The translations under genes were made by a program, and so were the position numbers. From assembly GCA_018062965.1 (NCBI GenBank), contig JAGORG010000002.1, positions 1,860 through 65,859 on the forward strand: a DNA stretch of 64,000 bases, written 5' to 3'. How positions within the stretch are numbered: the first letter of the stretch is position 1; every line of letters begins with the position of its first letter. This document shows positions 8,275 through 56,099 of the stretch, in pieces. This DNA is from Minisyncoccota bacterium. Its GTDB lineage: Bacteria > Patescibacteriota > Minisyncoccia > Phycocordibacterales > UBA5272. The notes beneath the pieces are model-generated. The model was not told where the DNA came from and ran no database searches. It saw nothing but the letters and a program-made list of their open reading frames with translations.

Positions 8275-11200
8275 TTACTTGCCTTCCTTTTCGCGAAGAC
8301 CAGTTCCCGCTGGAATCAATCGTCCGAGGATAACGTTTTCCTTCAAACCTCGTAGTTCATCTACTTGGCCACGAGTAGCGGCTGTGATGAGCACACGAGT
8401 TGTGTTTTGGAATGACGCACTAGAGAGCCATGAGTCTGTAGAGAGCGCCACGTCAGTGATACCGAGCACGAGATGCTTGCCTTTTGCTTCAGTTTTCGCA
8501 GCGTCTTTTGTACGCATGTTTTCGTGACGGAAGTTTGAAACTTCAACCACATCAGACTGAGTAAAGCGAGTCTCTCCTGGGTTAGTAATCTTGATACGTC
8601 CGAACATCTGCTTGATGATAACTTCAACGTGTTTACGTGTAATCGCAGCACCTTGGAGTTCATACACCTTGTTGATTTCAGACACGATGTATTCTTCAGT
8701 AACTTCTTTACCAGCATGTGTAAAGAGTTCTTCGATATCAGCAGAACCGTCAGTCAAGAACTGTCCTTTCTTTACCTTGTCTCCAATCTTTACAATTGGC
8801 TGTCGGCGGAATGGAACACTGTATTCACCTTGCTTGCCCTTCTTGTTACCCTTTGCAACTTCTGGTTCATCAACAATGAGTACAATAACTTTTTCTTTTC
8901 CTTCATCACGAATCGCAACTACTTCACCCGCTTCGTGAGCAATGATAGCTGGATTCTTTGGCATGCGTCGTTCAAAGATTTCTTCAACACGTGGAAGACC
9001 TTGAGTGATGTCAGCTCCTGCCACACCTCCAGAGTGGAAGGTACGCATAGTAAGCTGTGTTCCTGGTTCACCGATAGCTTGCGCTGCGACGATACCAACT
9101 GCTTCTCCAAGGTCAACTTTTTTGTTACGACCCATATCGAGTCCGTAACACTTCTGACAGATACCATGGAGTGATTCACATGTAAGTGGTGAGAACACCT
9201 TTACTTCTGTGATTCCAGCTGCTTCTACGGCGAGCGCATCATCCTTACTGATAAGATGATTCTTTTTGAAGAGAACCTTACCATCAACAGAAATGTCTTC
9301 AGCGATGATACGTCCACGAACTGTTTTTGAAATTGGAACTTCGATACCAAGAGCATTTTCTTTACGAATTTGCTTGCTTTCGCGTGTACCACAGTCTACT
9401 TCAGTGATGATTGCATCCTGTGCCACATCCACGAGACGTCGAGTAAGGTATCCAGCTTGAGCTGTCTTGAGCGCCGTGTCAGAGTTACCCTTTCGAGCAC
9501 CGTAGGTTGTAATGAAGTATTCAAGCGGGGTCAAACCTTCCTTGTATGATGAGATAACCGGGAAGTCGATGTTGCGTCCTGAGTTGTTCACGATGATACC
9601 CTTCATACCTGCCATCTGAATAATCTGAGCAACAGTACCTCGGGCACCTGATGTGATCAAGTCATACACAGAACCGTGTACCGCAAACGAGTGAGGCATG
9701 AGTTTTTCAATCTCCTTACGAACACCTTGCCATACGTCGATAGTACGTTCGTATCGTTCTTCTTCAGAAAGGAGACCTTCTTGGAAGTCGGCTTCTACTC
9801 TACCAGCTTGCTCCCAACCACTCTTCACAAGTCCTGTTTTTTCTTCTGGCACATTAATAGCGTTGATACCCCATGTAGTTCCAGAAACAGTTGCGTACTT
9901 GTAACCGAATGTCTTTATCTTGTCGATAATTTTTGGAGCAGTTTCAAGACCGTAGGTCAAAATAACTTCGTCAATAATAGCGTTTAGCTTCTTCTGAGTT
10001 ACTTCGTCATTGATGTATGGGAAGTCAGATGGGAACACAGAGTTGAAAAGGAGGCGTCCGATTGTTGTTTGGAATGGCTTACCTTCAAACTTTGCATACT
10101 TTTCTTTGTCAGTGTTTGCCATCACCCAAATCTTTGCGCGGAATGAAACAGCGTCAAAGTCATGTGCAGTGATTGCTTCGTTTGGTGAAGCAAAGTATTT
10201 GCCTTCACCTTTTTCTCCTGGAACTTCTTTTGTCATCCAATACGCACCGAGCACCATGTCCATGCGTGGGTTAACAATAGAGTCTCCAGAACCTGGCTTG
10301 AGCAAGTTGCGGTTAGCAGCCATGAGTGTTCGCGCTTCTTCTTGTGCTTTTACAGAAAGTGGAAGGTGAACAGCCATTTGGTCTCCGTCAAAGTCAGCGT
10401 TGAAAGCCTGACATACGAGTGGGTGAAGAGAGATAGCGTTACCTTCGATAAGACGAGGGTTAAACGCCTGAATACCAAGTCGGTGAAGTGTAGGAGCTCG
10501 GTTAAGGAGCACGTACTTTCCTTCGATACATTCTTCAAGAATCGCCCATACTTCTGGGATTCCGTCTTCTATCAACTTATTCGCACCACGGATGTTAAAT
10601 GCAAGCTCTCGTTCGAGAAGTTTTGAAATAACAAATGGCTTGAAGAGTTCAAGTGCCATGTGCTTTGGAAGACCACATTCATTCAAGTTAAGTGAAGGTC
10701 CAACGACGATCACAGAACGAGCTGAGTAGTCTACACGCTTACCGAGAAGGTTTCCTCGAAGAAGCCCTTGCTTACCTTTCAAGTTATCTGAAAGTGACTT
10801 GAGCTGACGCTTCTGAGACTGACTCATAACAGCATCCTGTCCATGACGAGCTGAGTTGTCGATGAGTGCATCACACGCTTCCTGAAGAATACGCTTTTCG
10901 TTTCGCAAGATAACATCTGGCGCGCCAATTTCCATCAACTTCTTGAGACGGTTGTTTCGGTTAATAACTCGACGGTACAGGTCGTTTACATCCGATGCCG
11001 CATAGCGTCCACCTTCAAGTGCAACCATAGGTCGAATACCTGCAGGGATAACAGGAATCACTGACATAAACATCCATTCTGGACGAATACCAGAGTTTTG
11101 GAATGCACGTACAAGTGAGAGACGCTTTTCAGCTTTTTCACGTTCGAGCGCTCCAGCCTTTTCAAGCTGCTTTACGATCTGTTCCTCAAGTGACTTAAGG

Positions 11201-45935: not shown

Positions 45936-46679
45936 CTACTTGCTGATTACGATACCTCTTCCAGCGTAGTAACTTAGGAACTCTTTTTCTGATAGTTTAT
46001 GATTTATTTGAGTATTGTTACTGACGAAACCCGACGGGTTGTTTATACTTATTGTTTTATTGTTTAAATCATATCCAGTTACAAGAACTAAATGCCCACC
46101 TTTTTGATGTATTGGAGCAGTAGCATACCCTCGGATATTTGGATTCACAGAGATGATAACCAACCTTCCTTTTGACAGGGCGTAGCAGATCCCCTTCATG
46201 CTTAATTTTGTATAGATATCAGCATGTACATTATATTTTTTAATCCATTTCGCAAACTCTCTATACTTCATTGCAGATAGTTCTTTTTTACTTTCCGTAT
46301 ATACACCATGCAGCAGAGCATCTTCTGCGAGCAAAGCTGGTTTAATATTTTTGTTCTCAAAATGAGATAGTGCCATGGCAGTAGAAGCCATACCACACAT
46401 CGTAAACGCCCACTCCGCATATCTTTTAGGTGAACTAGCGCCGGTTTCTGCCCAATGTGGGTCGTTCAGTGGATCGAGTTCTTTTTTCAAACTCAGTTCT
46501 GCGTGCTCTGGTTTCGCGAATTGGCACACATATGAAATATCGTAACTAACCTTGTTAGATGTAGGAGAAAATTTTGTTACAAACTTGTAAACAATATTTT
46601 TTACCTCTTGAAGTATTCCATATATGATTCTCATTCGAGTTAGTATATCAGAGCTGTTTTTATGATATGACTTGTTCAT
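45936..46679 (-). CDS. peptidase C39-like domain protein (papain-like Cys/His)
   Basis: ...AEWAFTMCGMASTAMAL... with a downstream His in GGHLVLVTGYD, as in Peptidase_C39_2-like proteins. Confidence 0.55.
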   Translation of the reverse strand: MNKSYHKNSSDILTRMRIIYGILQEVKNIVYKFVTKFSPTSNKVSYDISYVCQFAKPEHAELSLKKELDPLNDPHWAETGASSPKRYAEWAFTMCGMASTAMALSHFENKNIKPALLAEDALLHGVYTESKKELSAMKYREFAKWIKKYNVHADIYTKLSMKGICYALSKGRLVIISVNPNIRGYATAPIHQKGGHLVLVTGYDLNNKTISINNPSGFVSNNTQINHKLSEKEFLSYYAGRGIVISK

Positions 46680-46871: not shown

Positions 46872-47423
46872 ATGAGCATAACTTTTATTACAGGACACGC
46901 AAAGAAGGCTGAACAATTGTCTAGACACTTGGATTATGAAGTGAGCCATCAGAAGTTAGACTTGAAAGAAATCCAGTCTCTGGACCCTGTAGAAGTTACA
47001 ACTTACAAAGCAAAGGAGGCGTACATCCTACTTAAAAAACCTGTTTTAGTGGAGGACGTTTCTATTCGCTTTGAAGCTTTGGGAAGGTTACCAGGTACTT
47101 TAATCAAGTGGTTTTTGGAGGAACTGAAAGTAGAAGGATTGTGTAAGTTACTTAATGGATATCAAACCAGAAAAGCAGTAGTCGCTCCGTACTTTGGACT
47201 ATGTGTTGACGGAGAAAAAGTAGAAATCTTTACCGCAGAGATAGTTGGAGAAATTACAAAAGAACCTAGAGGGGAAAATGGTTTTGGTTTGGATAGTATT
47301 TTTATTCCGGATGGTTATACCAAAACTTGGGGACAAATGAATGATGAGGAACAAAATGAAACATCGGCAAGAAAATTGGCACTCAAAAAACTACACGCTT
47401 ATTTGCAGGAAAATAAAATCTAA
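46872..47423 (+). CDS. rdgB: non-canonical purine NTP pyrophosphatase (RdgB/Ham1 family)
   Basis: ITF(I/V)TGN-type N-terminus, a central region around FGLCVDGEK, and a C-terminal block around GLDSIFIPDG. Confidence 0.7.
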   Translation: MSITFITGHAKKAEQLSRHLDYEVSHQKLDLKEIQSLDPVEVTTYKAKEAYILLKKPVLVEDVSIRFEALGRLPGTLIKWFLEELKVEGLCKLLNGYQTRKAVVAPYFGLCVDGEKVEIFTAEIVGEITKEPRGENGFGLDSIFIPDGYTKTWGQMNDEEQNETSARKLALKKLHAYLQENKI

Positions 47424-47678
47424 AACTCTGTTGCGGAGAGAGTGGGATATTCGGTCACAAAACTACCTCGCGTTGCTCGAAGTAGTTTCGCGACCCCTAT
47501 TCGAATCCCACCGAAAAGACATGCAGATATCTTTTCTTCTCTCCACCAAATAAAAATGGCCCTTACGGGCTCATTTTTAAACTGGCGGTGAATATGGGTT
47601 AAGTGCCCACACTCTCAAGCGCTATAAGGATATTTTAGAGGAATTTTGAGAACTTATTTGAGGCACTCGGGTCGAGTG

Positions 47679-48053
47679 TTATTTACTGAGGTGTTCGTGG
47701 ATAAATTGCAGTTTGTCTCCGTTTCGAATAATTACATTTGTTCCCCGACCGCTTCCGCTCTTTTGTACCCCATCAACTATTCCCGACCAATTAAAGGTAT
47801 AGGTAATAGAAGCTGAATTTGAATCGGCGACTATGATCTTGAGGTCGGAAAGTGAATAAGTCTCGTTTTTAATTGAGCCCCAAGTGTTCTCAAAGGCTTT
47901 TTGAATAGCTTCAATACCTACAAAATCACCGTCCGTAAACCGGTATATGGCTTCAGAATGAACCAAACCAATAACATTAGAAAATACGTGGGAATTTGTA
48001 ACATCCTCGTACTTTTTTAAGAATTCTTTTATTTCTGATTCTGTGATGTTCAT
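47679..48053 (-). CDS. NTF2-like (SnoaL/DUF4440-like) small protein
   Basis: Size and alternating pattern are typical of the NTF2 fold. Weak. Confidence 0.4.
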   Translation of the reverse strand: MNITESEIKEFLKKYEDVTNSHVFSNVIGLVHSEAIYRFTDGDFVGIEAIQKAFENTWGSIKNETYSLSDLKIIVADSNSASITYTFNWSGIVDGVQKSGSGRGTNVIIRNGDKLQFIHEHLSK

Positions 48054-48214
48054 GGATTTTTTTAGGTACTCGGGTCTAGTTCGACACTTTTTTATTTTGG
48101 CGGAGATGGTGAGTTAGGTGCCTATAGGGTTAATCCGTGTAAGGTTATTCTAGCATCTTTGGCTTAGTCAGTTTGAGGATAGTGGGTTGGATAAATATAT
48201 TTCAAATGTTGACT

Positions 48215-48469
48215 CTAGTTTAGGGTAAACATTAAGTAAATAAAAGGTGCCCAACCTAAAAAGAAAATAATAAAAAAAGAAAAAATTAGTACCTTTTTTA
48301 AATTAGTGCGGAAAGTTTTACTTTTAACTACTTCTCTGACTTTGCTTATATTTTTATTGTCACCATAATTTTTTATGAAATATACATATACCCACTTAAT
48401 TATAGCTATAAGTCCTGCGAGGCTTATTATCACAAGAAACTGCTCAACAAAGGTTAAGTTATTATTCAT
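48215..48469 (-). CDS. small membrane protein (84 aa) in AT-rich islet
   Basis: Two hydrophobic helices. Very AT-rich codon usage. Confidence 0.4.
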   Translation of the reverse strand: MNNNLTFVEQFLVIISLAGLIAIIKWVYVYFIKNYGDNKNISKVREVVKSKTFRTNLKKVLIFSFFIIFFLGWAPFIYLMFTLN

Positions 48470-48602
48470 AGTAGTTAGTATAACAAAAGAGTTTGATGAG
48501 TATATATTTTTGGGAACCTTCGTAGAAGAATTATCTACGAAGATAAGGAGTTAAAGCCACTTGCTCAATAAAATGTTAAAATGTGAACTTTGAATTTACT
48601 TT

Positions 48603-49103
48603 TTACAGAGCATAATTCTTAGCTGGCTCTACAACCTCCTCCCATCCATAAACTTCTAATATACCTATTTTACTTGTATCAAAAGTTGGTAGAGGTGAAG
48701 GCAATTTACCAATAGAAACTAAGATTCCATACCTGTAGTTATAAGGTTCATTAAAATATGTAGATTCTATTTTTCTTAGGTCTGAAGTAAATTGTTTAAG
48801 TGTTGGATTCTTCTTAACTTCAAAAACTACGAAGTTATCTGAATTATTACCACGATGATGAATCGTAATATCAGGTCTTTGATTATTATATTTAACTAAC
48901 TCAACATCTAAATCATATTCTGGAAATTGTGTATGTAGTACCTGTCTTAGATGAGAACATATATTTAACTCCGAGGTATACCAAACCGAAGAATCATTAT
49001 CAGATATCCATTTTGCTGCATCTCTAACTTTTCTTTTGATTTCTTCTATATTCATAACTAAAAGCATAGCAAATGATAGTGGTCGAAATTTAAAAACCAT
49101 CAA
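48603..49103 (-). CDS. hypothetical protein (166 aa) in AT-rich islet
   Basis: Long ORF in a region of roughly 28% GC. Confidence 0.45.
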   Translation of the reverse strand: MMVFKFRPLSFAMLLVMNIEEIKRKVRDAAKWISDNDSSVWYTSELNICSHLRQVLHTQFPEYDLDVELVKYNNQRPDITIHHRGNNSDNFVVFEVKKNPTLKQFTSDLRKIESTYFNEPYNYRYGILVSIGKLPSPLPTFDTSKIGILEVYGWEEVVEPAKNYAL

Positions 49104-49166
49104 TTAAGATGGTTTTTAAATTCGTTTATTTTCCTACGCTCATCGAGCCCCAGAACCTAAACGACT

Positions 49167-49372
49167 TGGCGGTATTTGTTGGACAAAGTTCGAAAGTATT
49201 TTGCTGAAAATCCCGAAGAAGAAATCTGAATGGACTCGGCAGGGCGAAACAATTTGTCTGGGGGAAAGGATTCGCCCTGCCTCGGCTCTTTTCCCGCCCG
49301 CAGGAGGGGTCTGGGGAGGAATGCGGGCGGGTTTCGGACTGGGGGTTTTCGGATTTCAAAAATTCGCGGCTA
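49167..49372. repeat. IR-a' : 206 bp GC-rich repeat, inverted copy of 51355-51556 (about 99% identical)
   Basis: Direct comparison of the two stretches. Contains the hairpin cccgcccgca...tgcgggcggg. Ends at a TGGCGG junction. Confidence 0.9.
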
Positions 49373-49960
49373 GGACTTAATTATTATACAACGACCAGTA
49401 AATCCTTGCTCAAATTTTTGCAGAGACAAAAATTTGTACTGCCAGTTATATTCTGAACGGATAGATGTATGGTGAACATAAAAACCTTTCAATTTTCCAT
49501 TTTCTTCCTCAAAACCAACTATCAAAGCAAGGTGGCCACCGAATTTCTTCCAAAACAAAATTTTCTCTTTCAGCGTTTTATAATTCTCAAAAGCCCACTT
49601 GATTGAAATTAACGGGAGAAAATTTTGTTTTAGCGCTTCGCGCAATTCGGTGGCACTTACATTTTCACGATTGACGCCAGAAAAGCCAAACTCTTTCGCT
49701 AGCCGAGCAAGCCCGCCATGACTCCAACCAGTAGAATCCTTATATGCGCCAATCTCAACACCTTTTTTGATATATTGCGCAATTGACGGCGAAAGAGGTT
49801 TAGCTTTTGATTGCAAGAAGGCGTCAATCGCCATTTTGAGGCACAAAATTCCACATGAGGATTTTTCCCAATACTTTGCGTCCTCAAAACTTTCAAAACC
49901 TAAATTTTTCCATTGCGACAAATCCCATTTTTGCGAATAAAATGGCGCTTCCATTTTCAT
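49370..49960 (-). CDS. peptidase C39-like domain protein (paralog of 45936-46679)
   Basis: N-terminus FYSQKWD...SCGILCLKMAI and a downstream His in GGHLALIVGF. Confidence 0.55.
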   Translation of the reverse strand: MKMEAPFYSQKWDLSQWKNLGFESFEDAKYWEKSSCGILCLKMAIDAFLQSKAKPLSPSIAQYIKKGVEIGAYKDSTGWSHGGLARLAKEFGFSGVNRENVSATELREALKQNFLPLISIKWAFENYKTLKEKILFWKKFGGHLALIVGFEEENGKLKGFYVHHTSIRSEYNWQYKFLSLQKFEQGFTGRCIIIKS

Positions 49961-49965
49961 AAAAT

Positions 49966-51066
49966 TTATTCCGTGTCGTAGGAAGTTTTGAGCTTTTGTT
50001 CTTTCTCAAATCTTTCTAGTGCTAATTGAATCAAGCGATCTATAAGCTCGGTATAAGAAATTCCGGTTGCCTCCCATAATTTTGGATACATGCTAATCGA
50101 AGTAAATCCGGGGATAGTATTGATTTCATTGACCAAAATCTCCCCGTTTTCTTTAAGGAAGAAATCAACACGACCAAGTCCCTCACACGCAAGAGTTTTG
50201 AAAGTTTTAACTGCAAGTATTTGTACTTTCTTTACAATTTCTTCGGGCAACTTTGCGGGTATCTCAAGTGCCGCGCCATGCTCGTCTATGTATTTTGCTT
50301 CGTAAGAATAGAAATCGTGATTAGAAATGACTTCTCCAGGCACAGAAGCAATCGGATCGTCATTTCCGAGAACGGAACATTCAATTTCTCGTCCTTTAAT
50401 ATTTTCCTCGATGAGAATTTTCCTGTCGTACTTAAACGCCTCTCGGATTGCCTTATCAAAATCCTTTTCCTCGCTGACTTTACTCACCCCAACCGAAGAA
50501 CCCATATTTGCGGGCTTTACAAAAAATGGCAATCCTAAATTTTTGACGGCTTCCTCGTAAGTTGGAATATCTTTTTCTTTGCAAGTCAAAAATTTTCCTA
50601 TCGGTATTCCTGCATCTCTTAGCAATCTCTTCATTACATCTTTGTCCATTCCAACCGCCGAACCTAAAACGCTTGCTCCAACAAAAGGAATATTGGCGAG
50701 TTTTAGCAAACCTTGCATTGTTCCGTCCTCACCGAATGGTCCATGTAATATCGGAAAAACTACATCAATAGATTTGTCTGATTCGTGAGTATCAAGATTT
50801 GCTATTCTTCCGTCGCTTTCTGGAACAAGAGCAACACTCTGACTTGTTTCGTTATTGAGTTTAATCAATTTTGGATTTCCGCTATTTAGAAAAAATTTTG
50901 AACTGTCCGCCAAAAGCCATTTTCCCTTTTTATCCACGCCAATAAGAATTGGTTCGTATTTTTCTTTATCAATAGCGTCAATAACATTTTTGGCGGATTG
51001 CAAAGAAACCTCGTGCTCCGCTGATTTTCCGCCAAAAATTATTCCGACTTTAATTTTCTTTTTCAT
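49966..51066 (-). CDS. ddl: D-alanine--D-alanine ligase
   Basis: ATP-grasp fold. N-terminus GIIFGGKSAEHEVSL. Omega-loop SYEAKY retains the Tyr. Codon usage differs from the core genes. Confidence 0.85.
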   Translation of the reverse strand: MKKKIKVGIIFGGKSAEHEVSLQSAKNVIDAIDKEKYEPILIGVDKKGKWLLADSSKFFLNSGNPKLIKLNNETSQSVALVPESDGRIANLDTHESDKSIDVVFPILHGPFGEDGTMQGLLKLANIPFVGASVLGSAVGMDKDVMKRLLRDAGIPIGKFLTCKEKDIPTYEEAVKNLGLPFFVKPANMGSSVGVSKVSEEKDFDKAIREAFKYDRKILIEENIKGREIECSVLGNDDPIASVPGEVISNHDFYSYEAKYIDEHGAALEIPAKLPEEIVKKVQILAVKTFKTLACEGLGRVDFFLKENGEILVNEINTIPGFTSISMYPKLWEATGISYTELIDRLIQLALERFEKEQKLKTSYDTE

Positions 51067-51068
51067 AA

Positions 51069-51269
51069 TTATTTCTTGAGCAAGTCATCAACCGAAACTT
51101 CAAGGGCTTTCGCAATCCTTTGAATTGTTTCGATAGTAGGGTTGGGGCTTTCGTCCAACTCTATTTTTACAACAGTATTTAAAGATAAATCGGCAAGTTT
51201 TGAGAGTTTATCTTGCGAAAGCCCTTTCTCTTGCCGAAATCGTTTGATGTTCTTGCCTATTGCTGACAT
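51069..51269 (-). CDS. XRE-family helix-turn-helix transcriptional regulator (66 aa)
   Basis: HTH_3 pattern IKRFRQEKGLSQDKLSKLADLSLNTVVKIE. Confidence 0.75.
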   Translation of the reverse strand: MSAIGKNIKRFRQEKGLSQDKLSKLADLSLNTVVKIELDESPNPTIETIQRIAKALEVSVDDLLKK

Positions 51270-51354
51270 AGTAGATTATAATGTATGGAAAGTGATATAA
51301 TACTTGTATGACTTGCAAATCAATAATATCAGTTTTCCATTCTTTTTTCAAATG

Positions 51355-51556
51355 TAGCCGCGAATTTTTGAAATCCGAAAACCCCCAGCCCGAAACCCGC
51401 CCGCATTCCTCCCCAGACCCCTCCTGCGGGCGGGAAAAGAGCCGAGGCAGGGCGAATCCTTTCCCCCAGACAAATTGTTTCGCCCTGCCGAGTCCATTCA
51501 GATTTCTTCTTCGGGATTTTCAGCAAAATACTTTCGAACTTTGTCCAACAAATACC
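51355..51556. repeat. IR-a: inverted copy of 49167-49372
   Basis: Sequence comparison. One mismatch seen. Confidence 0.9.
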
Positions 51557-51674
51557 GCCAGAATTCGGAATTCAAATTTCCCGAAAAAATATGGTCGGCG
51601 CGAAGCGCCGTCTGTTCTGTATTCCCCCCACAAAATCCTGATTCTGAAAGGATTCGCCACGCTCCGCGTGGCTC
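51555..51674. repeat. IR-b: 120 bp inverted copy of the 3' end of the recombinase gene (53085-53204)
   Basis: Exact reverse complement. Encodes a pseudo C-terminus ...EPRGAWRILSESGFCGGNTEQTALRADHIF on the minus strand. Confidence 0.9.
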
Positions 51675-51701
51675 CTCGTTTGCCAATACAATTTCAATTT
51701 T

Positions 51702-53213
51702 ATGAATAATCACACCAGAAAGTTTTTCATATACACTCGCAAATCAACCGACACAGAAGATCGGCAAGTGAGAAGCATTTCAGATCAACTGGCCGAACTC
51801 AAAGAATTAGCGGTTAAAGAGCAAATTGAGGTCGTTGATATTTTTGTAGAAAAACAAACCGCTAAAAGTCCGGGTCGGCCAGTATTTAATGAAATGCTTC
51901 TCCGTATCGAGCAAGGCGAAGCAAACGGAATTTTAGCGTGGCACCCCGACCGATTAGCGAGAAATAGTGTTGATGGTGGCAAAATTATCTACTTGCTCGA
52001 TACCGAAAAACTTGCCGAACTGAAGTTCCCAACTTTCTGGTGTGATCCGACACCGCAAGGCAAGTTCATGCTTTCAATCGCTTTTTCGCAATCCAAGTAT
52101 TATGTTGATAATCTCTCGGAAAATATTAAGCGTGGTCATCGCAACAAAGTGAAAGACGGAATATGGCCTCAAATGTCTCCGCTCGGATATGTAAATGTGA
52201 AAGGTGCTGGAATAGTACCCGATGAGAATATTGCTCCGTTAATCAAGAAAACATTTGAGGCATACTCGTCTGGGTCTTTCACTTTGCGCCAACTCCGCGA
52301 CAAATTTAACGGACTTGGCTTGAAGCGAAAAAGCGGAAAGGAACTTGCGGTGTCGAACTATCAGCAAATCCTCAAAAATCCTATTTACACCGGTCTGATG
52401 AGGTATAACGGAGAGATTTTTGAGGGAAAGCACGAACCGATTATCACAAAGAAACTTTTTGATTCCGTTCAAGAAGTGATGATGAGAAAATCTAAGCCGA
52501 AAGGTAGAGGCTTGAAAGATTATCTATACAGGGGATTTTTCCGTTGCGGAGAATGCGGTTGTTTCATTACTACCGAAACACAGAAAGGCCATAACTATCT
52601 CCGCTGTACCAAACGGAAAAATCCTTGTGAGCAAAAATATGTCCGCGAGGAAATCATCACTTCTCAAATCAAAACGGAATTACAAAAAGTTTCTTTGCCA
52701 CTCGATTGGGCAAACTGGATGATTGTCGAAAACGAGAAAGATCGACAATCGGAAGTCCAATCGAGCGAGATTTTTTCTCAGAAGACAAAAGATGAAATTT
52801 CTCTTTTGGATTCCAAAATTGAGAAGCTGATGAACGCCTATTTGGAAAACGTTTTATCACTTGAGGAATATCGTGATTCTAAAAACAAGTTGGTTGCCTC
52901 AAAACAGCTTCTCAAAGAGAAATTCTCATTTTTTGAGAAAAAATCTCATAATCGGTTCGAACTTGCTGATAGATTCATAAAATCAAACGTAGAATTGGCA
53001 AACGAGGGAACAAATGAAGATTTTCTTCATTTGTTCAAAAAAGTCGGTTCGAACTTTTTAATTAAAGATCGAACCGTACTTTTTGAGCCACGCGGAGCGT
53101 GGCGAATCCTTTCAGAATCAGGATTTTGTGGGGGGAATACAGAACAGACGGCGCTTCGCGCCGACCATATTTTTTCGGGAAATTTGAATTCCGAATTCTG
53201 GCGGAGAATGTGA
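51702..53213 (+). CDS. large serine recombinase (resolvase N-domain, recombinase domain, zinc ribbon)
   Basis: N-terminus YTRKSTDTEDRQVRSISDQ with the catalytic Ser. RCGECGC...C...C zinc ribbon. About 503 aa. Confidence 0.85.
   Translation: MNNHTRKFFIYTRKSTDTEDRQVRSISDQLAELKELAVKEQIEVVDIFVEKQTAKSPGRPVFNEMLLRIEQGEANGILAWHPDRLARNSVDGGKIIYLLDTEKLAELKFPTFWCDPTPQGKFMLSIAFSQSKYYVDNLSENIKRGHRNKVKDGIWPQMSPLGYVNVKGAGIVPDENIAPLIKKTFEAYSSGSFTLRQLRDKFNGLGLKRKSGKELAVSNYQQILKNPIYTGLMRYNGEIFEGKHEPIITKKLFDSVQEVMMRKSKPKGRGLKDYLYRGFFRCGECGCFITTETQKGHNYLRCTKRKNPCEQKYVREEIITSQIKTELQKVSLPLDWANWMIVENEKDRQSEVQSSEIFSQKTKDEISLLDSKIEKLMNAYLENVLSLEEYRDSKNKLVASKQLLKEKFSFFEKKSHNRFELADRFIKSNVELANEGTNEDFLHLFKKVGSNFLIKDRTVLFEPRGAWRILSESGFCGGNTEQTALRADHIFSGNLNSEFWRRM
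53085..53204. repeat. IR-b': inverted partner of 51555-51674, inside the recombinase 3' coding end
   Basis: Ends with ...ctggcgg exactly at the tRNA 3' end. Confidence 0.9.
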
Positions 53214-53288
53214 GATTCGAACTCACGGAACCGGTAAAGGTTCGACGGTTTAGTAAACCGTTGGTTTAAACCACTCACCCAATTCTCC
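53202..53288 (-). tRNA. type II tRNA (long variable arm, G73, Ser-like) with an apparent ACT anticodon
   Basis: Acceptor GGAGAAT/ATTCTCC. T-arm GTGAGTTCGAATCTCAC. Anticodon stem ACGGT/ACCGT with loop TTACTAA. Needs a tRNAscan check. Confidence 0.6.
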
Positions 53289-53304
53289 ATATATTTTGGA
53301 AACG

Positions 53305-53452
53305 TGACTGCACGATGAGAATCGAACAACCTTCGCTACGCTATCGCTAAGCTACGGTTTCGGAACCACTCGGTTCCGATTCCTCCTCCACGGGGAAACT
53401 CCCGTTTCCCCGACCCCTTTCCCGTTCGAATCTCATCATCTCTTCCACCTGT
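53305..53452. repeat. about 95 bp structured core flanked by inverted tRNA 3'-end-like fragments
   Basis: Left arm GTTCGATTCTCATCG (minus sense). Right arm GTTCGAATCTCATCATCTCTTCCACC (plus sense). Internal hairpins tcggaacc..ggttccga and ggggaaa..tttcccc. Confidence 0.45.
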
Positions 53453-53493
53453 AAACAGAAAAGCCGGGGAGTGTCCCGAGCTTTTCTGTTTAT

Positions 53494-53581
53494 GCGGAGA
53501 CGATGAGATTCGAACTCATGAAGGGCGTAAACCCTTGCCTCGTTAGCAGTGAGGTGCCTTCGACCAGCTCAGCCACGTCTC
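53494..53581 (-). tRNA. tRNA-Ser (GCT)
   Basis: Anticodon loop CTGCTAA. Long variable arm AAGGG..CCCTT. T-arm CATGAGTTCGAATCTCATG. Discriminator G73. Confidence 0.8.
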
Positions 53582-53823
53582 CATTCTTCTATTACTTTTC
53601 TAAAACCGTTACCTCCTTTATACGACTTAAGAAATTTTTCTACTTTTCTTACTTCTTCGATTGAGGAAAACTCTTTTGAGCAAAGTAGACTCCATTCACC
53701 GCGAGAAGTAGTACGTCCACCTGTATGACTCTTATGTCTTTGTGTTCGCTTAGAAAGTTCAAGACACGAACCAGTGTAATGCTTACCTGTATTCTTGTCT
53801 TGAAGAACATAAACGAAAGCCAT
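53569..53823 (-). CDS. GIY-YIG nuclease domain protein (YhbQ/UPF0213-like)
   Basis: FVYVLQDKNTGKHYTGSCLELSKRTQRHKS...GEWSLL resembles the YhbQ family. The stop overlaps the tRNA-Ser 5' end. Confidence 0.6.
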   Translation of the reverse strand: MAFVYVLQDKNTGKHYTGSCLELSKRTQRHKSHTGGRTTSRGEWSLLCSKEFSSIEEVRKVEKFLKSYKGGNGFRKVIEEWRRG

Positions 53824-53839
53824 TTTTGTAGTATAAACC

Positions 53840-53906
53840 CTTGCCTCGTTAGCAGCTCGCCCCGCTAAGCGGGGTAAAGTGCCTTCGACCAGCTCAGCCA
53901 CGTCTC
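53840..53906 (-). pseudogene. partial duplicate of the tRNA-Ser(GCT) 5' half with a 23 nt hairpin insertion
   Basis: GGAGACGTGGCTGAGCTGGTCGAAGGCAC[TTTACCCCGCTTAGCGGGGCGAG]CTGCTAACGAGGCAAGGGTTTA, then diverges into the GIY-YIG gene. Confidence 0.6.
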
Positions 53907-54147
53907 CGTATTATTTTTGTCTAAAACACTTATTGTTGTGCACGCTTTGATATATATCTTATCAGGTCTTCGCTGTAAGCTCGCATCAAAAGTTTGCTAA
54001 CTTTTGATATCTTCGGAGCCAAGCTTCTCGAGCAACGTCTCCGTATTTTTATACAATTTACCTACACACTTCCTGCACGTTTTTATTCAATATTTTCCTA
54101 CTGAATGTGTTGTATCTTATCACAAAACACCCTTCTGTGCTACCGAA

Positions 54148-54447
54148 CTATTGCGCCAATTCTTCGCGAATCATACGCTCTAACTTTTCTAAATCAACTG
54201 TTTTTCCTTGCATTGCAAGCCTTCCATTTACCAAAAAGATTGGCGCATGCCATGCCCCCTTCCATATCACTCTCCACCAATTAGGTAGCCACTCTTGTAC
54301 TTCAAACGTCACATCCTGACCTGCGAACTTTTCTCGCACCAAGTCATTGATAACTAGCTGAGACAATTCACACTCACCACACACTGTCTTGATACGAAAT
54401 AGCCCCCATGATCCCGCCCAACGATACTGTGTGATAGTTACTTTCAT
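54148..54447 (-). CDS. thioredoxin-fold protein (glutaredoxin-like, CxxC)
   Basis: CGEC motif near the N-terminus. About 99 aa. Confidence 0.45.
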   Translation of the reverse strand: MKVTITQYRWAGSWGLFRIKTVCGECELSQLVINDLVREKFAGQDVTFEVQEWLPNWWRVIWKGAWHAPIFLVNGRLAMQGKTVDLEKLERMIREELAQ

Positions 54448-54452
54448 ATACG

Positions 54453-55136
54453 ATGTATACTACCATAATGCATAAGCGTCTCACTATAACTGTAGCCATT
54501 CTGTGGGGGATAGCGATTCTCTTCTTTTTCCGAGAACTTTATGTGTACGCATTTGTCGAAGCAATGGGTATACCAAAAGCACTCGAAATGTTTGGCACCG
54601 AACTGCAAAAAGCAATCATGGGATTTGGAGTATTCACCCCTCTTTTGTTTATCTTGCTCTACAGCATACGACCACTTGTTCTTTTCCCGGCTTCTATCAT
54701 GACAATTACATCAGTATTTTTATTTGGACCATACGGAGGATTCGCTATTAGTTATGTGGGAGAATTGTGCTCTGCGGTTGTTGCGTTCTTTGTTGGAAAA
54801 TACTTCGGCCAAGAGTTAGGGCTAACCAAGCGAGTTGCGTCTACAAAAATAGGATCATACTTTCAAGGGAATCCATTTACATCTGTGTTAGTTTTACGCC
54901 TTGTACCACTCTTTCCTTTTGACTTTGTGAATTATGCATCAGGTGTTGCAAAACTACCGACATCGGCATACCTGTACGGCACAGCACTCGGCGTTCTACC
55001 AGGACTTGCGATGTACATCTTTTTAGGATTCTCACTGATGCACACCGAATACCTGCTCCTCGCACTTTGTCTGTTTGGTGTTTTGATTGGGGTATCAAGG
55101 TACTTCAAACCACGCTTATCGCAAAGCAAACAATAA
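54453..55136 (+). CDS. DedA/TVP38 family membrane protein
   Basis: Conserved LRLVPLFPFDFVNYASG motif. Confidence 0.75.
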   Translation: MYTTIMHKRLTITVAILWGIAILFFFRELYVYAFVEAMGIPKALEMFGTELQKAIMGFGVFTPLLFILLYSIRPLVLFPASIMTITSVFLFGPYGGFAISYVGELCSAVVAFFVGKYFGQELGLTKRVASTKIGSYFQGNPFTSVLVLRLVPLFPFDFVNYASGVAKLPTSAYLYGTALGVLPGLAMYIFLGFSLMHTEYLLLALCLFGVLIGVSRYFKPRLSQSKQ

Positions 55137-55220
55137 CCACACACAGAGACATACTGTGTATAGAGGTCAGTATCAGAACATGTGAACTGATACACTAAAG
55201 GTAATCACATATACACCTTT

Positions 55221-56099
55221 ATGCGTCGACATCTACATCCATCTACACGTTTGATTCTAAGTGCGATACTTGTTATCGATATATTTGTATTCTTTGCATA
55301 CTACGCACTATCTCAACAACAAATAACTCATACGGAAAGAAAAACACATGAAACCTACACCAATGCAACATACGGCATAACATTCCAATACCCTGCTACC
55401 TATGTAGTAAGTGAAACAAAAATAACTGACTCAACGTTGGGCACAGGTCGTATGATCACCCTTTTAGAAAAAGGAGTACCTATTCCACAAGCAGGTGAAG
55501 GCCCGACAGCTATCACACTCGCTATCTACGAAAACAAACTCGCAGCACTAGCTGATGAGCACCCACTAGATACATGGGTACGAGCAACACCAGAATCAAA
55601 CTTCAAACTAGCAACTCAAGCAATACCAAACAAACTAACCATAGCTGGAAACGAAGCGCGAGCATACGCATGGGACGGACTCTATAAAGGGATTAGTTAT
55701 GTAACACATAACAACGACACCGTGCTCATGTTTTCGGTTACCTACAACGGCCAAGGCGACACACAGAAGCGCGAAGACATCCTTTCAATACTCAAAACAC
55801 TCAAACTCTCTCGAGGAACGGCGTCTGTGACTACATCATTTACTGGTACGTATGGATGCCTTCCACATAAAGACAAAGACGGGATACATACGATGGAATG
55901 CGCTTTTGGTATAGCAACAGATGACGGTGTACACTACGCGATAGATCTACAAGATGTTCCAGAATATATGAACACTGAGACAGGATCCCGTATACATGTA
56001 TCTGGAATATATGTTCCATTAGAAGCGATCAGTTCTACTCGTTGGTCTACCTATGACATCAAGGGTATTGTGCGTGTTACATCATTTAGAAAACTTTAA
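55221..56099 (+). CDS. hypothetical membrane-anchored extracytoplasmic protein (292 aa)
   Basis: N-terminal transmembrane helix. No recognisable domain. Confidence 0.5.
   Translation: MRRHLHPSTRLILSAILVIDIFVFFAYYALSQQQITHTERKTHETYTNATYGITFQYPATYVVSETKITDSTLGTGRMITLLEKGVPIPQAGEGPTAITLAIYENKLAALADEHPLDTWVRATPESNFKLATQAIPNKLTIAGNEARAYAWDGLYKGISYVTHNNDTVLMFSVTYNGQGDTQKREDILSILKTLKLSRGTASVTTSFTGTYGCLPHKDKDGIHTMECAFGIATDDGVHYAIDLQDVPEYMNTETGSRIHVSGIYVPLEAISSTRWSTYDIKGIVRVTSFRKL

Follow-up and report, generated by a model that had tools for sequence, protein, structure and literature searches.

A tRNA-Ser-targeting mobile element of Patescibacteria that probably carries a doubled, inverted attP for its large serine recombinase

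The integrases of phages A118/LI, phiC31, Bxb1 and SPbeta (SprA) are large serine recombinases (LSRs) composed of a resolvase domain, a recombinase domain, a zinc ribbon and a coiled coil. They leave hybrid joints with a short core, and in their attachment (att) sites the distance of the distal motif from the centre is 5 bp shorter in attB than in attP. A second group of related systems comprises tRNA-targeting genomic islands, defence islands and tycheposons, which are small cargo islands at tRNA 3' ends with restriction, Abi and Septu-like genes among their cargo. Mobile elements of the ultra-small bacteria of the Candidate Phyla Radiation (CPR), or Patescibacteria, are little known. In this study, we analysed a stretch of 64,000 nucleotides (the window) from a Minisyncoccota bacterium (GenBank assembly GCA_018062965.1, contig JAGORG010000002.1), in which a recombinase gene and a small cargo segment, each bounded by inverted repeats, abut the 3' end of a tRNA-Ser gene. 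We consider it probable that positions 49167-53204 are an integrated, LSR-driven mobile element of Patescibacteria that inserts at tRNA-Ser 3' ends and carries a doubled, inverted attP. The element shares the resolvase, recombinase and zinc-ribbon domains (with a putative coiled coil), the joints and the motif shift with the phage integrases, and the position and type of cargo with the tRNA islands. In contrast to the phage LSRs, its recombinase is less than 30% identical to them, lies outside any phage context, targets the 3' end of any tRNA-Ser gene and is accompanied by no evident directionality factor; moreover, each att site has one conserved half-site, attP overlaps the stop codon of the recombinase gene, and a second, inverted attP is present. 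Most tRNA islands rely on tyrosine integrases and create a direct repeat of part of the tRNA gene, whereas here 4-6 bp are shared and the repeats are nested and inverted. No system is known to us that combines a tRNA-Ser target, an attP over the recombinase stop codon, an inverted second attP and a protein tail that depends on the joint. The unusual part of this combination is the intact inverted attP inside the element, bracketing recombinase and cargo.

The element is built from two pairs of inverted repeats, as seen in an inverted-repeat scan of 47000-55500 and in the sequence itself. The arms of the first pair (IR-a), the outer a' (49167-49372) and the inner a (51355-51560), are 206 nt long and match at 205 of the 206 positions, the sole mismatch being A versus G near 49338/51389. 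The arms of the second pair (IR-b), the inner b (51555-51674) and the outer b' (53085-53204), are 120 nt long and match without exception. Both pairs are far beyond chance, since the remaining inverted repeats in the same 8.5 kb reach 30 nt at most, with 70-82% identity. IR-a and IR-b overlap by the hexamer CCGCCA (51555-51560); its complement TGGCGG opens a' at 49167 and recurs at 53199-53204, where it is the 3' CCGCCA of a minus-strand tRNA-Ser(ACU) gene (53199-53288). This tRNA gene, the presumed target, is intact, and its CCA would have been regenerated by the b arm. The segment between the a arms, here termed X, encodes on the minus strand a C39-like peptidase (49370-49960, PF13529), a D-alanine--D-alanine ligase (Ddl; 49966-51066, NF002525, an NCBIfam equivalog, 531 bits against a cut-off of 457) and an XRE-family helix-turn-helix regulator (51069-51269), which is divergent from the recombinase. 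The segment between the b arms, Y, holds the gene of the 503-aa recombinase (51702-53213, plus strand), whose last 40 codons before the core constitute b', so that the inner b arm mirrors the 3' end of the recombinase gene and carries the palindrome GCCACGCGGAGCGTGGC at its inner end. An earlier sequence-only reading had proposed four repeat copies in two inverted pairs, the CCGCCA/TGGCGG hexamer at the IR-a/IR-b junction, at 49167 and at the tRNA 3' end, the gene content between the repeats, and a recombinase whose 3' end belongs to the repeat. The repeat scan, the sequence and the domain searches confirm this description, including the identity of about 99% for IR-a; only the end of the inner a arm has to be moved from 51556 to 51560.

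The joints of the element identify the attachment sites. Across 21 loci of the family described below, the three joint types, a/b, tRNA/b and a/F (with F as the host-side flank 3' of the tRNA), have only CCGC in common. In the window the core is TGGCGG, present at the left F/a' joint (49167-49172, attR-type), at the right b'/tRNA joint (53199-53204, attL-type) and, as CCGCCA, at the internal a/b joint (51555-51560), where it is inverted relative to the element ends. CCGC corresponds to the last two acceptor-stem bases, the discriminator G and the first C of CCA, and is followed either by the b arm or by a host-specific F arm. In the window, F (the B' side of attB; 49087-49166, minus strand) contains a terminator-like hairpin (49087-49122), and F arms often open with CA, which completes the encoded CCA, and hold a terminator hairpin. 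From the position of CCGC, together with the CCA remainder and the terminator in F, it follows that the element sits exactly between the tRNA-Ser gene and its trailer.

The core-proximal part of the a arm is the most conserved DNA of the element. In 31 of 31 distinct a arms, the hexamer TTCGAA (51533-51538 in the inner a arm of the window) is located 26 nt from the end of CCGC, and in the tRNA-Ser arms, where the same hexamer is the T-loop, the distance is 21 nt in all cases. For known LSRs, the motif bound by the zinc-ribbon domain was placed at positions 16-24 in attP and 11-19 in attB, a shift of 5 bp (Rutherford et al.; PMC3783163). Because the displacement of TTCGAA agrees with this rule, a/b behaves as attP, tRNA/F as attB, and the outer joints as attL and attR; the rule applies to one half-site only, since variation in the b and F arms prevents a judgement on the other. 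Because of this variability, site recognition looks strongly one-sided. Since a is the reverse complement of a', and b' that of b, the internal a/b joint is an intact attP copy that is inverted relative to the element ends. A dyad, GAACTTTG/GAAATTTG, centred on 51558 is clear in the window, but was set aside as evidence for the a/b site, as its b-side motif is not conserved across the family. GA dinucleotide ends, as bound the elements of TnpX (Tn4451) and TndX (Tn5397), in which a single protein carries out excision and insertion via a circular joint, were not found, the core being CCGC, and protein similarity to these enzymes is limited to generic LSR domains. The layout had earlier been judged not to be the simple attL/attR pattern of a serine integrase. 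It is indeed more than a plain attL/attR pair, given the intact inverted attP inside the element. The supposed incompatibility with a serine integrase does not hold, and the argument that such enzymes share only a 2-bp core between their sites loses its force, since the outer joints have just the 6-bp core in common (4 bp across the family), as expected for attL and attR.

Integration as a canonical attP x attB reaction is well supported. In this reaction, the a/b region (51355-51674, centred on CCGC) would serve as attP, while the T-arm and acceptor end of the tRNA gene and its downstream flank would form attB. With strand exchange as known from other LSRs, the crossover would fall within or beside CCGC and would produce the tRNA/b joint at 53204 and the a/flank joint at 49167. 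The element would carry two attP regions of about 320 bp in inverted orientation, one of which would be split into the outer a' and b' arms upon integration; the other would stay intact in the centre, between the divergent XRE-cargo operon and the recombinase gene. The free form would be a circle, in which the unique segments X (cargo) and Y (recombinase) are separated by two inverted attP repeats. Presumably either attP is usable, which would give two integration isomers. Use of the joint at which recombinase and cargo converge would lead to isomer 1, as in the window, with the recombinase truncated at the core, and use of the joint from which XRE and recombinase diverge would lead to isomer 2. 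In isomer 1, where b' is joined to the tRNA, the protein would end in meaningless tRNA-antisense codons, whereas in the circle, in tandem arrays and in isomer 2, where b' is joined to a', it would end in a conserved, helix-forming tail of 11-19 aa. The b arm, for its part, would place a hairpin and a T-rich tract behind the tRNA and thereby replace the displaced terminator. The postulated circle resembles the yeast 2-micron plasmid (FLP/FRT) and plastid genomes in having two unique segments and two identical inverted repeats, and, as in the 2-micron plasmid, the repeats contain the site of the recombinase. However, FLP is a tyrosine recombinase that flips its plasmid via identical sites, whereas the element is integrative, its circle is deduced from the repeats, and its sites are two copies of attP, a pair of sites on which canonical LSRs do not act. 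Engineered systems for cassette exchange with dual att sites, and integrase fusions with recombination directionality factors (RDFs), likewise have two inverted att sites that flank a payload (PMC5737554).

A scan of one genome per species gave 80 loci with related elements, and the layout F/a' X a/b Y b'/tRNA-Ser recurs in dozens of Patescibacteria genomes, including more than 20 fully covered loci from different species. In this family, an inverted copy of its own 3' end lies beside the recombinase gene, and upstream there is usually a second inverted-repeat pair that encloses 1.5-6.4 kb. The element measures about 4 kb in the window and 3.5-9 kb elsewhere. IR-b is about 120 nt long and IR-a 190-278 nt in all fully covered loci, and arm identity is 97-100% within most loci and 70-97% between loci. 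A minus-strand tRNA-Ser 3' end abuts the recombinase stop codon in 64 of the 80 loci, with the anticodons GGA (20), TGA (17), GCT (15), CGA (10) and ACT (2); elements occupy the genes for all five tRNA-Ser isoacceptors. In two of the 80 loci an a' arm lies downstream of the recombinase gene. Upstream of b, an a arm was found in 50 loci, a plus-strand tRNA-Ser gene in four and the contig end in 18.

These counts bear on two explanations that treat the locus as an accident. The first is a one-off rearrangement at a tRNA hotspot, in line with the proposal of the sequence-only reading that the locus may be the scar of successive integration and inversion events. tRNA-Ser fragments on both sides (48094-48113 and 53424-53447) and a GIY-YIG insertion at the next tRNA do mark a hotspot, but the same layout, repeat lengths and boundaries occur in dozens of species, and the proposal is not borne out. 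The second is an artefact of assembly or amplification, that is, a chimeric fold-back, for which perfect inverted repeats are typical; many related contigs also end at the repeats. Against it, the layout recurs with different, independent assemblers and in separate samples and studies, single-base differences distinguish the arms in several loci, the one in the window among them, and one arrangement (L111 and L112) is found in two data sets. The family-wide layout and the joint counts effectively rule out both explanations; we regard a local scar as very improbable and give practically no weight to an artefact.

Further support comes from a site that is occupied in one genome and empty in another. 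A second tRNA-Ser gene, tRNA-Ser(GCU) (53494-53582, minus strand), lies next to the target in the window and represents an unoccupied attB of the same kind, with the core GCGG at 53494-53497 and its native terminator at 53451-53493. A scan with the membrane protein of the right flank yielded one close relative, a metagenome contig (L084) that is 90-96% identical to the window at the nucleotide level to the right of the locus. This contig opens with a b'-type arm, near-identical to one in L007, which is joined at GCGG to the orthologue of the window tRNA-Ser(GCU). In the window, the same tRNA gene is followed by its own terminator, and the homology breaks exactly at GCGG. The site is occupied by a related element in L084 and empty in the window, and the two sequences part at the predicted core. 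As L084 ends at the tRNAs, it is informative for tRNA-Ser(GCU), not for tRNA-Ser(ACU). For the exact insertion at the ACU gene, an empty counterpart did not turn up in the data searched.

The recombinase belongs to the LSR family. It matches PF00239 (Resolvase, E=2e-20), PF07508 (Recombinase, E=1.6e-15) and PF13408 (zinc ribbon, E=2.6e-8); R13-K14-S15 is invariant in 40 homologues, and the cysteines C281, C284, C301 and C308 are invariant as well. An AlphaFold2 model of the long isoform, which is weak as a whole (mean pLDDT 59), contains two long antiparallel helices (333-380 and 386-433, pLDDT 70-85), and residues 333-433 are predicted to form a coiled-coil hairpin. In the same weak model, the 40 residues encoded by b' are disordered and the tail is a terminal helix. 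A fold search with this model was dropped on account of its low mean pLDDT. The nearest solved or annotated relatives are the recombinases of SPbeta and A118, CcrB, XisF and phage integrases, all with less than 30% identity over residues 1 to about 400; for the C-terminal ~100 residues no counterpart was found among solved or annotated LSRs. The protein has more than 7,500 database relatives, and the best 120 are 79-92% identical, all named ones among them being labelled Patescibacteria/CPR. Viral contigs contained recombinases of only 25-26% identity, which argues against a phage link. Exact-protein look-ups returned no record of the window recombinase or of an ORF in the left flank. Mapping of breakpoints in L027 and L029, where b and b' differ, showed the recombinase gene to be a fine mosaic of family variants; a discrete exchange point could not be named in either locus, as the whole gene is mosaic. 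The mosaic points to frequent homologous exchange and fits with gene conversion, which may keep the arms identical.

Since attP overlaps the recombinase 3' end and the reading frame crosses the core, the C-terminal tail of the protein depends on the joint. The core TGG CGG encodes the WR of FWR, and the tail differs thereafter. In the window, the reading frame continues 9 nt beyond the repeat into tRNA antisense and the short isoform ends in FWRRM (EFWRRM before the stop codon). In about 85% of the 120 homologues, the C-terminus is made up of tRNA-antisense sequence, arbitrary in length (DSNPR and the like), while about 12% end in a tail encoded by the a arm. The frame for this tail is open in 31 of 31 a-arm variants over 11-19 codons, with the consensus [CY]xL[DNY][KE][VI]Rx[YF]F[EG]xNPx[DE]. 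Its Pro codon varies synonymously (CCA, CCG, CCT and CCC), and such synonymous change indicates selection at the protein level. In the window, positions 49170-49229 within a' encode the tail RYLLDKVRKYFAENPEEEI, followed by a stop codon, which is read when b' joins a'; the long isoform then ends in FWRYLLDKVRKYFAENPEEEI. Integrases of the SSV1 type in archaea provide a parallel, as their attP lies inside int, integration alters the recombinase gene and the target is a tRNA gene. The SSV1 enzyme, however, is a tyrosine recombinase, and its gene is cut into two parts; the present recombinase exchanges no more than a short C-terminal tail, and an inverted attP duplicate is absent from SSV1. In engineered integrase-RDF fusions, C-terminal appendages can alter activity or directionality and can change the pairs of sites that are recombined (PMC5737554). 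These fusions are synthetic, and an effect of the tail on the directionality of the present recombinase is hypothetical; it is tempting to speculate that the tail or the inner attP has a regulatory role.

Isomer 2 exists. In L113, b, the recombinase gene and b' are followed directly by a', the cargo and XRE genes in opposite orientation, and a at the flank; in L082, a plus-strand tRNA gene is joined to b, the recombinase gene, b' and a'. The arms are only 91-95% alike in L113 and 77% alike in L082, and differ enough to exclude assembly ambiguity. An intact internal attP is expected to recombine with further tRNA-Ser genes, which predicts Y segments between two such genes, and the arrangement tRNA(+)/bYb'/tRNA(-) was observed in L003, L055 and L064 with exact cores. 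Alternating arrays of the form a'Xa/bYb'/a'Xa/bYb' occur in L007 and in L111 and L112, which show the same arrangement from two independent assemblies and data sets. Joints of b' with a' were seen in L043, L083, L111-L113, L081 and L110, and for each of them an array, isomer 2 or a possible mis-traversal of the assembly graph offers an explanation. As candidates for the circle, L113 was rejected because it is an integrated isomer 2, and L111/L112, L083 and L043 because they are arrays.

The products without an a arm (L003, L055 and L064) could also be taken to mean that the element consists of two independent cassettes, namely an insertion-sequence-like bYb' with 120-bp terminal repeats that inserts beside TTCGAA-N-CCGC, in tRNA-Ser or in a, and a passenger a'Xa, with palindromic closing joints. 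It fits with this idea that all joints pair a TTCGAA-type arm with a b or flank arm, and that X and Y alternate in arrays. Removal of bYb' from loci such as L003, however, would leave tRNA genes fused 3' to 3', which is implausible as a native site, and palindromic joints predict random orientation, whereas the observed orientation is strongly biased. In addition, the arrangement of X beside Y with XRE proximal is nearly constant, and the 5-bp motif shift puts a and the tRNA into separate site classes (attP-type and attB-type) and does not make them halves of a single site. We therefore consider two separate cassettes quite unlikely, though less so than a local scar.

A somewhat better, but still unlikely, alternative to a single integrative element is an in-place switch, in which the recombinase flips X, Y or both and thus toggles the tail or a promoter link, with tRNA integration being secondary. 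The sequence-only reading had named such an invertible, shufflon-like system as one of two options. The inversion systems Hin, Gin, Cin and Pin and the Rci shufflons share with the element segments that are bounded by inverted repeats and a coding 3' end that would change on inversion, and in Hin, Gin, Cin and Pin a serine recombinase gene adjoins such segments. In assemblies that resolve the repeat, the recombinase segment does occur in either orientation to its neighbours (L082, L113, L055, L064 and L111/L112), two loci (L029 and L043) hold the same cargo in opposite orientation, a flip of Y would exchange the short for the conserved long tail, and the arm identity of 97-100% within most elements is expected under frequent recombination. 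The defining features of Hin/Gin or Rci are absent, however. Those systems use a small serine invertase (about 190 aa, with a C-terminal helix-turn-helix) or a tyrosine recombinase rather than a 503-aa LSR, crossover takes place at short sites (19-34 bp) inside their repeats, and they are immobile and vary a structural protein, not the recombinase itself. Here the breakpoints lie at the outer ends of the 120- and 206-nt arms and not within them. In-place switching would also be contrary to the pairing rules of known LSRs, which do not pair attP with attL or attR (PMC3783163). Moreover, the orientation is strongly biased (64 loci toward the tRNA versus a handful; XRE proximal in about 20 of 23), and since IR-a exceeds assembler k-mers, the difference between L029 and L043 may be an assembly choice. 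Integration via either attP, together with secondary attP x attB events, explains both orientations equally well or better; the orientation differences exist between genomes but do not show switching in place.

A promoter-like site for the XRE-cargo operon (TTGAAA-17-TATTAT, 51323-51351, minus strand; a consensus match only) is located just inside X. As this candidate lies within X, flipping X would not switch the cargo, which speaks against an in-place switch. A second promoter-like site inside X (51253-51282, plus strand) faces the recombinase gene and would fit a switch, but promoter-like matches are not enriched relative to shuffled sequences. The XRE gene (65-68 aa) is the sole constant cargo gene and nearly always lies beside the inner a arm (about 20 of 23 loci). 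The other cargo varies by locus and comprises a Septu-like pair of AAA ATPase and HNH proteins, an HpaII restriction-modification system with a RadC-methylase fusion, GmrSD, an EcoRI methylase, a UvrD-like helicase, Abi genes, a cytochrome d1-like protein and an Orn/DAP decarboxylase. Such cargo is typical of mobile islands. In the window, Ddl is carried as mobile cargo, and an identical Ddl protein is encoded on X-sized contigs from two other data sets that are cut at the repeat. A second gene for a C39-like peptidase (45936-46679, 247 aa) lies 2.7 kb outside the element.

Both arms contain hairpins. The terminator-like b-arm hairpin (CGGCGC-GAA-GCGCCG with a T-rich tract) lies at 51596-51610 on the plus strand, upstream of the recombinase start, and in b' at 53149-53163 on the minus strand with its T-rich tail, 36 nt past the tRNA 3' end, where it may substitute for the displaced terminator of the tRNA. 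The a arm has two covarying, GC-rich hairpins with C-rich loops (CCCCAGA) at 51396-51489, mirrored at 49238-49331; these are H2 (51396-51434) and H1 (51446-51489), and H1 keeps 11 pairs with compensatory changes at 9. In L018 (9696-9733), one a-arm hairpin loop is inverted compared with other loci. Neither the a arms nor the b arms matched a known RNA family in Rfam searches of the window at the gathering threshold and of 48500-54500 at E<=1.

Several points weigh against an integrative element with a doubled attP as set out here. A directionality factor is not apparent, and the XRE regulator is the sole constant accessory gene. RDFs share no common signature. A contig proving the free circle was not found among the contigs that encode the long-tail protein; L081 and L110 fit a circle, but the same sequence could arise if the assembly graph was traversed wrongly at IR-b. 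The b arm and the flank arm show little conservation, which leaves half of each site weakly defined, and the dyad GAACTTTG/GAAATTTG is not conserved family-wide. In four of the 80 loci, b' is joined to sequence other than tRNA (L021 at 11512, L022 at 11503, L023 at 1672 and L049 at 11500). An Rfam search of these four loci gave no family matches at the joints, which could represent an alternative target or another type of arm. A metagenome scan and protein look-ups revealed no empty site for the exact insertion at tRNA-Ser(ACU). Lastly, a 16-nt tRNA-Ser 3'-end fragment, CTCACCATCTCCGCCA, is found on the minus strand at 48094-48113, 1.07 kb to the left of the element, and because of this fragment the left flank may be an older island instead of the native tRNA trailer. 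The interval between them (48114-49166) is low in GC (30.6%) and has two small unannotated ORFs.

Other observations concern the non-tRNA joints and the tRNA genes around the element. L023 and L049 have a conserved stretch of about 130 nt in common at the b' joint, and database protein tails match it (TWVKYP). L023 also contains a match to the LOOT RNA (82 bits, 8735-8856) that is unrelated to the element. To the right of the target, a plus-strand tRNA-Ser 3'-end fragment, GTTCGAATCTCATCATCTCTTCCA, at 53424-53447 is directed toward the 3' end of tRNA-Ser(GCT), with a bidirectional terminator in between, and in L026 the corresponding tRNA-Ser(GCT) is on the opposite strand; together, these hint at a past inversion or replacement. 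An ORF for a GIY-YIG endonuclease (110 aa, 53569-53901) lies between the complete tRNA-Ser(GCT) and a partial copy of the tRNA 5' part (53834-53907) with a 19-nt insert (region 53494-53907), whereas L084 has a single tRNA and no GIY-YIG gene at 85-380. The arrangement resembles an insertion of the homing-endonuclease type, about 325-340 bp long, which would have supplied a new tRNA copy in place of the old one. An A at position 34 is unusual for a serine tRNA of bacteria. A class II tRNA with the anticodon ACT (tRNA-Ser reading AGU) recurs in several Patescibacteria, usually beside tRNA-Ser(GCT); copies are found in the window (53199-53288) and in L001 (4878-4963), L026 (1786-1873), L041 (14508-14595), L055 (9439-9526), L064 (11495-11584) and L072 (1935-2022).

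Full-text searching of the literature found no description of this element family. Beyond the integrative element itself, we tentatively propose, as a possibility that we hold to be rather less probable than not, an LSR that operates without a directionality factor, in which the integration state rewrites the recombinase, the second inverted attP acts as a natural dual-att device, and the element is a major vehicle of gene flow across the CPR. If this were true, only an attP-type joint would give rise to the conserved C-terminal helix, integration via the 'terminator-side' attP would remove it, and the change of tail would set the choice of site pairs or decide whether the recombinase acts at all. 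The dual attP would give rise to two isomers, to cargo and recombinase cassettes that are split and swapped between tRNA-Ser genes, to chromosomal inversions and to cassette arrays.

For genome reconstruction, the element is a recurrent cause of assembly breaks and possibly of mis-binning. Many contigs of CPR metagenome-assembled genomes start or stop inside the a or b arms (contig starts in L013-L080), and some element-bearing contigs are binned as Bacteroidota, Actinomycetota or Gammaproteobacteria. The element explains many of these contig breaks (18 of 80 loci end at the repeat) and predicts inversions that are bounded by tRNA-Ser genes. The enzyme is an LSR with three uncommon traits, namely a universal natural target, strongly asymmetric recognition and a C-terminus that depends on the state of recombination; it makes directionality control without a separate factor directly testable, and could yield an engineering tool for organisms that have so far had none. 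For the biology of the Patescibacteria, one recombinase clade, with 80-92% identity across many candidate phyla, accounts for thousands of database proteins, and every tRNA-Ser gene is a destination of its cargo, which includes defence systems and cell-wall genes.

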